64,000 nt of DNA from Candidatus Uhrbacteria bacterium. GTDB lineage: Bacteria > Patescibacteriota > Patescibacteriia > UBA9934 > GWF2-40-263. Under the pieces are notes generated by a model, which saw only the letters and a program-made list of their open reading frames with translations, had not been told where the DNA came from and searched no databases. This document shows positions 31,794 through 32,791 of this stretch, in pieces (the stretch's first letter is position 1; every line of letters starts with the position of its first letter). The translations under genes and the position numbers were made by a program. The stretch spans positions 349 through 64,348 of the forward strand of contig JACPHU010000010.1 of NCBI GenBank assembly GCA_016188495.1, in the 5' to 3' direction.

Positions 31794-31944
31794 GACACTC
31801 ACAGCAGCCGTTTACACACGAGCTGCTTTTTGTTTAAAGATTTTGAACCATCGTTAGCTATTTTTATATCATTCGGGATCAAGCGGTGTCCATCCTTTCC
31901 GTTGACGGTGACGTAGGGCAATGATACGGTTTGCGAAAATAAAA

Positions 31945-31995
31945 GAATATTCCCTGAGCCTGCCTGCCGTGAGCGTGTCAAACGGTCGAAGGGTC
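31945..31995 (+). repeat. Family-2 short dispersed repeat, copy c
   Basis: GAATATTCCCTGAGCCTGCCTGCCGTGAGCGTGTCAAACGGTCGAAGGGTC. Confidence 0.65.
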
Positions 31996-32128
31996 AAAAT
32001 TCGATGAAAGTAAAACGTTCAAAATTGGATGAGTTGCGCCGGGCTGGAGGAAAAAAATCCGTGAGTCGTAGCCAAATCTACGGCGAACGGATTTTTTCCC
32101 GAGACCCAAGCAGATCGCGGATAATTAT
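31996..32128 (+). repeat. Family-1 element, degenerate copy F (tandem to copy C)
   Basis: Left CAAAATTCGATGAAAG..., right ...AAGCAGATCGCGGATAATT, internal hairpin AAAAAAATCCGT...ACGGATTTTTTC. Confidence 0.45.
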
Positions 32129-32134
32129 TTTAAT

Positions 32135-32261
32135 GAGATCTCTTCAAAAATCGATGAGATTTCGTTGAATGGGGAAATCAGTGATAGAGCCGTATTCAAA
32201 ATACGGTGACGAACCGATGGGGCCCCATGAAACGAAAGATCGCGATTTTTGAAGAGATCTC
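32135..32261 (+). repeat. Family-1 structured palindromic element, copy C, ending 3 nt before tRNA-Ser
   Basis: Outer arms GAGATCTCTTCAAAAATCG / CGATTTTTGAAGAGATCTC perfect 19 bp; subterminal ATGAGATTTCGTTGAATGGGG vs CCCCATGAAACGAAAGATCGCG. Confidence 0.75.
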
Positions 32262-32264
32262 TAT

Positions 32265-32355
32265 GGAGAGGTGGCAGAGCTGGTCGAACGCGCATGACTC
32301 GAAATCATGTATACCTGAAAAGGTATCGGGGGTTCGAATCCCCCCCTCTCCGCCA
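32265..32355 (+). tRNA. tRNA-Ser (anticodon CGA), long variable arm
   Basis: Acceptor GGAGAGG/CCTCTCC, anticodon arm CATGA-CTCGAAA-TCATG, variable hairpin TATACC..GGTATC, T-arm GGGGG-TTCGAAT-CCCCC, encoded CCA. Confidence 0.8.
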
Positions 32356-32388
32356 TTCGACTACCGTTGTATTGTTTAGAACGGTAGT

Positions 32389-32416
32389 CGAATGCCCTGA
32401 GCCTGTCGAAGGGCAG
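32389..32416 (+). repeat. Family-2 repeat, truncated copy d
   Basis: GAATGCCCTGAGCCTGTCGAAGGGCAG, ends conserved, centre minimal. Confidence 0.5.
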
Positions 32417-32489
32417 AAGTGTAATGGTATACAACCGCTCATGGTCGTTGACCATTCAAATTAGAGAATCGTGCTCTTTAACTCCGTGT

Positions 32490-32753
32490 ATGCAAAACTT
32501 GTTTTTTGTCTATATTCTAGAATGTTCTGATGGAAGTTATTACGCGGGTTCAACAAATGACTTGGAGGAAAGGTTAAAACGGCACAATACAGGTGAAGCA
32601 TCAGAATGGATAAGTAAACGTCGACCGATAAAAATGATCTATCAATAAGGATATGTCTCATTACTCTCTGCACGACAACGAAAGGAACAGATAAAAGGCT
32701 GGTCTCGAAAAAAGAAAGAAAATCTTATCAATGGTGTTTGGAAAAAAATATAA
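32490..32753 (+). pseudogene. GIY-YIG nuclease family protein (UPF0213/YhbQ-like, 87 codons) interrupted by in-frame TAA at 32646-32648
   Basis: MQNLFFVYILECSDGSYYAGSTNDLEERLKRHNTGEASEWISKRRPIKMIYQ*GYVSLLSARQRKEQIKGWSRKKKENLINGVWKKI; both halves in the same frame match the GIY-YIG and C-terminal 'QIKGWSRKKKENLI' pattern. Confidence 0.65.
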
Positions 32754-32791
32754 CAACCCTTCGTGGGGTTTTTTGTTAAGGTGATATCAAG

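Follow-up and report, generated by a model that had tools for sequence, protein, structure and literature searches.

A tRNA-Ser(CGA) locus of Candidatus Uhrbacteria with nested hairpin repeats, a decayed GIY-YIG nuclease cassette and an inversion breakpoint

Layout of the tRNA-Ser(CGA) interval

This report concerns the surroundings of the tRNA-Ser(CGA) gene in a metagenome-assembled genome (MAG) of a Candidatus Uhrbacteria bacterium (GenBank GCA_016188495.1), analysed within a stretch of 64,000 nt (contig JACPHU010000010.1, positions 349 to 64,348 of the forward strand) that is referred to throughout as the window. Two families of short hairpin repeats, designated family 1 and family 2, meet here with the tRNA gene and with the gene of a small GIY-YIG nuclease. 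Nested insertions of family 1 occupy the 5' boundary of the tRNA gene, a decayed GIY-YIG cassette occupies its 3' boundary, and the left edge holds an inversion breakpoint; the rearrangement hotspot is real, and it is a composite one. For comparison we used Uhrbacteria GW2011_GWF2_39_13 (hereafter the relative), the closest relative retrieved, which is represented by loci L097-L099, L018, L048 and others. The features of the interval, in window coordinates, are the following.

31803-31832 (+), terminator hairpin of a gene for a 736-aa membrane protein (fold -12 kcal/mol, z = -4.8)
31866-31915 (no strand), left breakpoint of a ~13-kb inversion (~31866-45003), containing TCAAGCGGTGTC, placed by comparison with locus L098 of the relative
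31947-31993 (+), long family-2 copy of the form ATATT-CCCTGAGC-variable inner hairpin-GTCGAAGGG, found by pattern search
32004-32134 (+), family-1 copy F, of a variant subtype, its outer arm decayed on the 3' side (19.4 bits under the covariance model, E ~0.01, on 32028-32118)
32135-32261 (+), family-1 copy C, intact, ending 3 nt before tRNA position +1 (129 bits; -61.7 kcal/mol, z = -10)
32265-32355 (+), tRNA-Ser(CGA), intact, with encoded CCA (ARAGORN; Rfam 54.4 bits)
32354-32394 (+), 41-nt hairpin with a 15-bp stem that includes the terminal CA of the tRNA (-32.6 kcal/mol, z = -6.5)
32395-32413 (+), short-form motif CCCTGAGCCTGTCGAAGGG, 76 nt before the ATG of the GIY-YIG gene and on the same strand, the sole short motif in the 64 kb
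32490-32753 (+), GIY-YIG nuclease gene of 87 codons, catalytic domain only (Pfam PF01541, E 1.9e-14 with its in-frame stop read as Glu)
32755-32778 (+), intrinsic terminator, AACCCTTCGTGGGGTT with a T run, behind the GIY-YIG gene (terminator scan)
32792-33526 (+), ORF244 (open reading frame HYV70_02675), an accessory gene of patchy distribution between the tRNA gene and the displaced flank
33604-33707 (+), displaced tRNA 3' flank, made up of a putative, degenerate remnant of the tRNA-Ser 3' end (33604-33623), a CCAC-ATAAAAACACCGAC... hairpin (33624-33659) and a conserved GTCGACTTTACGTGG block (fold z = -7.3)

The membrane-protein gene has its 3' end at 31793 and a GC content of 51%, as against 44% in the window; its product is identical to HYV70_02660 and 78% identical to the orthologue of the relative. 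The region of its terminator hairpin is kept in L097-L099 up to window position 31865, which ends the last block collinear with the relative. A preliminary description of this DNA, made from the letters alone, had placed downstream of this GC-rich gene a family-2 copy, F, C, the tRNA gene, a hairpin, a truncated family-2 copy and a GIY-YIG gene interrupted by an in-frame TAA. Pattern search, the covariance model, folding and Pfam recover all of these in that order, and the TAA recurs in independent data. Two details required revision: the hairpin, given as 33 nt long, measures 41 nt with a 15-bp stem, and the supposed truncated repeat, which does stand at 32395-32413, is part of the GIY-YIG cassette and not independent debris.

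Family-1 elements at the 5' boundary

Family 1 is a non-coding, strand-specific hairpin element of ~127-132 nt with a density of about one copy per 10 kb. Four intact copies score 119-142 bits in the window under the covariance model (45-58 bits on the opposite strand), and two further copies, A and F, are partial. In front of three of the four tRNA genes of the window (Cys, Ser and Leu) a family-1 copy ends 3-5 nt before position +1, the spacer between C and tRNA-Ser(CGA) being TAT. The three other intact copies are listed here.

24185-24316 (+), copy B, ending 3 nt (TAT) before tRNA-Cys, kept in the relative (L018)
54431-54558 (-), copy E, ending 5 nt before tRNA-Leu(TAA), kept in the relative (L049)
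45641-45768 (-), copy D, with no tRNA link

When the window and the fetched loci are taken together, 11 tRNA genes (three in the window, eight in related loci) have a same-strand copy upstream, at 19-22 nt from the end of its core and in one case at 36. No family-1 element accompanies tRNA-Ser(CGA) in L038 or tRNA-Gly in the window.

The tandem arrangement before tRNA-Ser(CGA) can be dissected with the help of locus L027. The best match of copy F (83.6% identity, E 3e-27, with compensatory changes) is an intact L027 copy that ends 3 nt before a tRNA-Ser(GCU) gene. In this alignment the end of F (...TTTTAAT) corresponds to the start of the tRNA in L027, and it is at exactly that point that C begins in the window; the upstream nest therefore represents two successive insertions into the same slot directly 5' of the tRNA. 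Copy F probably abutted tRNA-Ser originally, and C would later have landed between F and tRNA position +1. Presence of the element is also polymorphic: a copy in the relative (L048, 2370-2499), bounded exactly by GAGACC...GGTCTC, faces an empty site at window 11781/11782. In its behaviour family 1 resembles a miniature mobile element, one that places its right end at 2-6 nt from the boundaries of tRNA genes, and a copy upstream of a tRNA gene would probably be transcribed as the tRNA leader and released by RNase P.

The secondary structure of the element is under strong constraint. In an alignment of 113 copies (767 kb), 97.8% of cells are paired, with changes on both sides in 28 of 37 pairs; none of 500 shuffles reaches the observed values, and slid partners pair at 34-44%. 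The fold is a rod-like hairpin with two invariant internal loops, TCGATGAGATT opposite AAGATCGCGA, which we read as tandem G·A pairs, and with one nearly invariant U·G pair. The outer stem retains its pairing between copies that differ wholly in sequence, and most copies have outer arms of the form GAGACC.../...GGTCTC. Orientation relative to neighbouring ORFs shows no clear bias, in a count that is noisy because the ORFs are mechanical and not genes. A hammerhead identity of the loops was considered by eye and dropped, since the CUGAUGA and GAAA elements do not fit. Rfam 15, run with gathering and permissive thresholds on the window and 20 related loci, returned only tRNA and transfer-messenger RNA (tmRNA) models and matched neither repeat family.

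A pattern scan of 185,579 species-representative genomes placed family 1 almost only in Uhrbacteria and other Patescibacteria MAGs, with few hits in MAGs otherwise labelled. Typical copies of the latter kind occur in L002, L022 and L027 ('Lentisphaerae GWF2_44_16') and in L045, L050 and L073 ('Gammaproteobacteria'), and L046 (labelled 'delta proteobacterium') has a match that may be due to chance. The tRNA loci of L027 are Uhrbacteria-like in spite of the Lentisphaerae label, and the copies under such labels suggest mis-binned contigs or wrong labels.

Several individual copies are unusual in their own right. A 432-aa membrane ORF (45671-46969, minus strand) runs into copy D, so that the repeat encodes its last ~30 residues (...AKLDEIALNGLLSPENPTQSRENGVNGRP) and the stop codon. 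Copy A (170-325, plus strand; 25.9 bits) has a normal 5' half, but its 3' half has given way to a hairpin rich in GC, cagcccgcccgaacgactgaac...gttcagtcgggcgggc; a nested insertion is one possible reading of this copy, a variant the other. In L074 a copy 91% identical to C (4634-4762) lies on the strand opposite to tRNA-Thr(TGT) and adjoins its CCA end with no gap, a geometry that, as pure speculation, tRNA-primed copying of family 1 would also be expected to produce.

The GIY-YIG cassette at the 3' boundary

The match of the nuclease to PF01541 spans positions 2-78 of the 78-position profile, and neither the window protein nor its intact orthologues have a separate DNA-binding domain, the 87 aa being entirely covered by the catalytic domain. 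The reading frame is interrupted by a TAA at 32646-32648, which is found again in the independent Logan contig L186 (100% identical over 4,012 nt). The affected column is Glu in 71 of 82 homologues, a change from GAA to TAA takes a single substitution and the remaining frame is intact; the NCBI annotation accordingly lists only a truncated 52-aa product (P0022). Judged from its sequence, the nuclease is inactivated here by the TAA and would have died recently.

Intact 87-aa orthologues have 86% and 67% identity. The region upstream of the 67% orthologue (L187 and L188) is homologous to window 32380-32489 and shares with it GGTAGTCGAATG (the 3' arm of the hairpin), the motif (there in its long form), ACCGCTCATGGTC..GACCA and ATTAGAATCGT, so that the 41-nt hairpin and the CCCTGAGCCTGTCGAAGGG motif can be assigned to the GIY-YIG cassette. 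Hairpins similar to the terminator of the window gene also follow the GIY-YIG genes of L038 and L187. At L188 1-279 a unit of ~98 nt, comprising the hairpin arm, the long motif and a small hairpin, is tandemly duplicated, and as L187 has a single copy, the upstream array expands and contracts between strains. ORF244 was considered as a further member of the cassette and ruled out, for NUDIX and Ddl genes take its place after the intact orthologue in L187. The cassette (32356-32778) would comprise the hairpin with its array of CCTGAGC...GTCGAAGG repeats, the 87-codon nuclease gene and the terminator.

The association of motif and nuclease extends to 80 GIY-YIG loci on unrelated metagenome contigs, which were scanned with the pattern CTGAGC-N2-3-GYCGAAG. 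Within 150 nt upstream of the genes the motif has a density of 2.55 per kb, with 22 copies on the gene strand and 8 on the opposite one; within 150 nt downstream the density is 1.64 per kb and the strand preference is reversed (13 opposite, 6 same strand). At more than 1 kb from the genes no copy was found in 105 kb. A motif copy lies at 150 nt or less in 27 of the 80 loci, and many of the genes are flanked by direct repeats of 18-113 nt (control maximum 13 nt). In the window the array is present on the upstream side of the gene only. The literature that was searched yielded no description of GIY-YIG genes paired with a hairpin repeat or tied to tRNA-Ser.

Long family-2 copies have the same outer motif as the short GIY-YIG-associated form, with an inner hairpin inserted. 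The pattern search found five of them in the window, where none is expected by chance, which together with the short form makes six family-2 copies. The family is also present in loci of the relative, in part as inverted doublets (L036 and L068). One of the long copies is polymorphic.

44795-44834 (-), long family-2 copy, absent from the orthologous site in L098 (insertion/deletion polymorphism)

Directly after the family-2 copy at 3100-3140, the segment 3141-3200 contains further repeat-like sequence, ccttcgacggattcgaccattcgacaagctcatggc; this includes most of the motif core in reverse complement, as TTCGACAAGCTCA, and may be an inverted doublet.

The position of the GIY-YIG gene beside a tRNA gene is not peculiar to the window. 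When 850 kb of Uhrbacteria-type DNA were searched in six frames with an iterated profile, only three GIY-YIG genes came up, all three just downstream of tRNA-Ser: that of the window after tRNA-Ser(CGA), that of L038 after tRNA-Ser(CGA) and of a different subfamily, and that of L027 between tRNA-Ser(GCU) and tRNA-Ser(UGA), where a perfect 15-bp hairpin follows straight after CCA. The subfamilies at this site differ, with identities of 39% and 38%. Since L038 also has a GIY-YIG gene after tRNA-Ser(CGA), and one of another subfamily, the idea of a recent single insertion of the gene is weakened. Among the 80 metagenome loci, five lie beside a tRNA or tmRNA gene and 75 do not. In L116/L117 the order is tRNA-Ser(CGA), motif, GIY-YIG gene, a perfect 18-nt repeat of the tRNA 3' end and tRNA-Ser(GGA); in L118 the cassette stands between 28-nt perfect repeats of a tRNA-Gly 3' end; in L175 the gene lies inside a tRNA array; and in L104 the cassette directly follows a tmRNA gene. 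The repeat-bounded units of L116 and L118 hold only the GIY-YIG gene and its repeats.

With up to 3 mismatches allowed, no second copy of the tRNA-Ser 3' end was found. What looks like the original flank of the tRNA gene can be traced in the window. The segment 33604-33707 aligns to L038, where the aligned region takes in the last ~20 nt of tRNA-Ser(CGA) and extends further downstream. L038 represents the empty site: its terminator hairpin, CCACGTAAAAACACCGAC...GGTGTTTTTACGTG, directly abuts the CCA of tRNA-Ser(CGA) with nothing between, as it abuts that of tRNA-Ala in L086. Because the flank aligns with L038, ~1,249 nt (32356-33604), consisting of the GIY-YIG cassette and ORF244, separate the tRNA from its apparent original flank. 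The cassette and this accessory ORF would hence sit between the CCA end and the original terminator hairpin of the tRNA. ORF244 itself matched nothing in Pfam, PHROG or NCBIfam; three homologues were found, each in a different context, one of which (L183) has a phage-type integrase and a SIR2-like gene at a distance of 3 kb. At the other three tRNA genes of the window (Cys, Leu and Gly) a long hairpin comes straight after CCA (24392-24435, 54300-54340 and 59449-59490), with A- and T-tracts on both sides that give it the look of a bidirectional terminator; tRNA-Ser is the exception, its hairpin having no T run.

The inversion and the origin of the locus

Collinearity between window and relative extends from 25308 to 31865; in the relative there follow an ISNCY element and then the window sequence from ~45002 down to 38581 in inverted orientation. 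Locus L098 thus joins window 31865 to window ~45002 on the minus strand. In the outgroups L101 and L102 a homologue of the gene at 44.5-44.7 kb of the window directly follows the membrane-protein gene, as it does in the relative, and it is for this reason that the ~13-kb inversion is taken as derived in the window lineage, 31866-31915 being, on this account, one of its ends. The other end is as follows.

45003-45030 (-), right inversion junction, just upstream of a conserved TTGACA-17-TAGAGT promoter-like site, seen in the MAG assembly only

The 12-nt TCAAGCGGTGTC is present in inverted orientation at both junctions (p ~0.02), which is suggestive only. Inverted family-2 copies were ruled out as the cause: the right breakpoint is at ~45003 and not at the copy at 44795-44834, which the relative simply lacks. 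The ISNCY-family insertion sequence of L098 (~10290-11672; transposase E 2.4e-118) has terminal inverted repeats and a 12-bp target duplication, GGCTTAATCTAT, and it is inserted exactly at the junction that matches the inversion breakpoint of the window. Two neighbouring features deserve mention. An inverted repeat with 31-nt arms (window 44862-44958, minus strand; L098 11745-11840) lies between the TTGACA-17-TAGAGT site and a 166-aa gene; it is kept in the relative, has no match in Rfam and could be a structured leader. At window 40893-43560 (plus strand; L097 13121-15735), about five paralogous small genes matching T4SS_pilin/TrbC Pfam families adjoin a solute-binding protein gene and are kept in relatives.

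With a probability of roughly 0.55, three separate events around the one tRNA gene have together produced the interval, namely the family-1 nest, the GIY-YIG cassette and the inversion. The agents are likely to have been small non-autonomous elements and a homing-type nuclease cassette; the locus was probably not made by a phage-type integrase. In the most likely mechanism for the cassette, a free-standing homing-type nuclease would cut at or near the 3' ends of tRNA-Ser genes, and repair would copy the cassette in and regenerate the tRNA end. For the nuclease itself the hairpin repeats would serve as sites of recognition or mobilisation, as REP (repetitive extragenic palindromic) sequences do for the RAYT transposase.

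A number of observations weigh against this composite reading. Window 32245-32514 and the right inversion junction depend on a single MAG assembly, and the Uhrbacteria loci were chosen because they carry family 1, which biases frequencies taken from them. About 90% of family-1 copies are not beside a tRNA gene (~10% are tRNA-adjacent), four of the tRNA-adjacent copies differ in geometry (three downstream on the opposite strand, one downstream on the same strand), and the flanks hint at a target duplication of 2-3 nt (TT, AT or TAT) that is inconsistent among copies. On the 3' side, the L038 gene, of another subfamily, sits after the terminator hairpin, and the adjacency of tRNA-Ser and GIY-YIG could be old and vertically inherited instead of arising by repeated insertion. 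Cleavage and mobility are only inferred for this nuclease family, which has no DNA-binding domain, unlike the T4 Seg enzymes. The tRNA-end remnant at 33604-33623 matches at 15 of 21 positions and is C-rich, a score that is not significant alone (against the tRNA end of the window itself, 273 of 3192 control windows do as well); its meaning comes from the contiguous alignment with L038 and not from the match itself.

The preliminary description took the locus for the scar of an integration/excision hotspot. Structural variation among relatives, which it had proposed as a check, is indeed found, in the form of the ~13-kb inversion breakpoint and of the ISNCY insertion at the same junction in the closest relative; the 1.25-kb displacement of the tRNA flank and the cassettes bounded by tRNA-end repeats in L116 and L118 likewise accord with it. 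The integrase genes that it proposed to look for did not turn up. Pfam searches of 16 ORFs (25.2-41.6 kb) identified housekeeping genes and genes of unknown function and no integrase, recombinase or transposase, and tblastn of two tyrosine recombinases and the ISNCY transposase against the 64 kb gave no match (for the recombinases, none at E<=0.1). Nor are the upstream repeats attachment-site (att) scars; they are copies of an element habitually found at tRNA 5' ends.

These results bear directly on a classical integrase island, by which a phage-like element or an integrative and conjugative element used an att core to enter tRNA-Ser(CGA) at its 3' end. The later loss of the integrase and of most cargo would have left behind a decayed attR together with ORF244 and the GIY-YIG gene. 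Such an origin would account for the degenerate tRNA 3'-end copy with its flank 1.25 kb downstream, and it gains some appeal from the company kept by the ORF244 homologue in L183 and from a tyrosine recombinase gene right beside the tRNA-Ser(CGA)/GIY-YIG unit in L116. That recombinase gene, however, lies just 5' of tRNA-Ser(CGA) and outside the repeat-bounded unit, which like that of L118 consists of GIY-YIG gene and repeats only; what comes after the intact orthologue in L187 is not island cargo but housekeeping genes (NUDIX, Ddl); and the GC content of the insert (41.5%) matches that of its neighbours. With the window itself devoid of any detected integrase, we consider this origin unlikely.

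A second alternative dispenses with mobility altogether and sees a functional, vertically inherited tRNA operon, in which family 1 serves as a structured 5' leader or processing signal and the GIY-YIG gene is a host gene, co-transcribed with tRNA-Ser, with one recent nonsense mutation. The very strong covariation and strand asymmetry of family 1 speak for such a function, the copies before tRNA-Cys and tRNA-Leu are common to the window genome and the relative, and the tRNA-Ser/GIY-YIG adjacency recurs in several lineages. Against this stand the filled and empty sites between relatives in both repeat families, the ~90% of family-1 copies that lie away from tRNA genes in both orientations, and the tRNA-Ser(CGA) of L038 and tRNA-Gly of the window, which do without the element. 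Function does not readily explain the tandem of F and C, the site is occupied by GIY-YIG genes of different subfamilies, and that of the window is dead; we rate the operon as quite improbable.

Assembly support was assessed with Logan contigs. From the left inversion junction through the family-2 copy and through F to most of C, the sequence is contiguous in the independent contig L001, at 100% identity, and 32515-44824 is contiguous in L186. The contigs stop at 32244 (within C), resume at 32515 and break again at ~44824 (within a family-2 copy), so that 32245-32514 (end of C, tRNA, hairpin and motif), as well as the right inversion junction, are joined by the MAG assembly alone. A MAG contig chimeric at repeats, with neither juxtaposition nor inversion real, is nonetheless very improbable, as the two flanking contigs carry most of the arrangement and the unbridged 270 nt repeat arrangements seen independently elsewhere (family 1 to tRNA; tRNA-Ser to hairpin, motif and GIY-YIG gene).

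Among characterised systems, T4 SegB is the closest analogue of the window nuclease. In T4 the segB gene is placed between those for tRNA-Arg and tRNA-Ile, and its target is the tRNA intergenic region (PMC2988022, Table 1). Free-standing GIY-YIG homing genes of this kind resemble the present one in their intergenic slot by tRNA genes, their patchy presence and the hairpins upstream of the ORF. The window protein differs in having 87 aa and a catalytic domain only, in being chromosomal in a bacterium of the candidate phyla radiation (CPR) and not in a phage, and in possessing its own hairpin-repeat family and, in other contigs, tRNA 3'-end duplications; it is known here through its sequence. 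The layout also recalls that of REPIN-RAYT systems as outlined in PMC3116915 and PMC3337134, in which a nuclease gene is flanked by inverted short hairpin repeats. As far as that outline goes, the GIY-YIG loci are similar, with plus-strand repeats upstream and minus-strand repeats downstream of the nuclease gene, and in the window lineage the repeat is likewise dispersed as single copies and inverted doublets. The nuclease is of the GIY-YIG type, however, and not an HUH/Y1 transposase, and in most metagenome loci the repeats are confined to less than 1 kb of the gene. With islands of tyrosine integrases the cassettes have in common the insertion at tRNA or tmRNA 3' ends, the regenerated end and the displaced repeat (perfect in L116 and L118, a degenerate candidate in the window), but neither the bounded segments nor the window contain an integrase, and the unit measures only 0.3-1.25 kb.

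For family 1 the nearest comparisons are of another kind. Correia, ERIC and RUP are bacterial palindromic elements similar to miniature inverted-repeat transposable elements. Family 1 is like them a non-coding imperfect palindrome with terminal inverted arms, abundant, intergenic and polymorphic in its presence; it differs in outer arms that are free in sequence but covary, in conserved and asymmetric loops, in strand specificity and in its precise placement at tRNA boundaries, and it has no identified cognate transposase. Ty3 and the Dictyostelium TRE5 elements are eukaryotic retrotransposons that insert position-specifically upstream of tRNA genes. Repeated, nested insertion at a fixed short distance 5' of tRNA genes is shared by family 1, which is, in contrast, bacterial, non-coding and ~130 nt long, with no linked reverse transcriptase or integrase. 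By analogy, Ty3-like targeting may have a bacterial counterpart in family 1. The catalytic-domain-only GIY-YIG genes with their CCTGAGC...GTCGAAGG repeats may in turn constitute a bacterial selfish or domesticated element with a REP/RAYT-like layout and a different nuclease, one that may settle at tRNA and tmRNA 3' ends and regenerate them. We advance only tentatively the joint proposal that GIY-YIG genes and hairpin repeats form an undescribed class of elements and that family 1 inserts at tRNA boundaries by recognition of structure.

The genomes of CPR bacteria are tiny, and the usual description of these organisms is that they contain little mobile DNA. A single locus of one such bacterium combines a nuclease cassette with a rearrangement breakpoint and with small structured repeats of two families that are active or were so recently. 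Should GIY-YIG genes truly be linked to the motif, the link would give a function to the very common and unexplained proteins of ~90 aa annotated as "GIY-YIG nuclease family", and it would account for a widespread repeat that generates spurious ORFs. If family 1 does target tRNA boundaries, it would offer a tractable case of structure-guided insertion in bacteria and would explain the assembly breaks at tRNA loci in these genomes.

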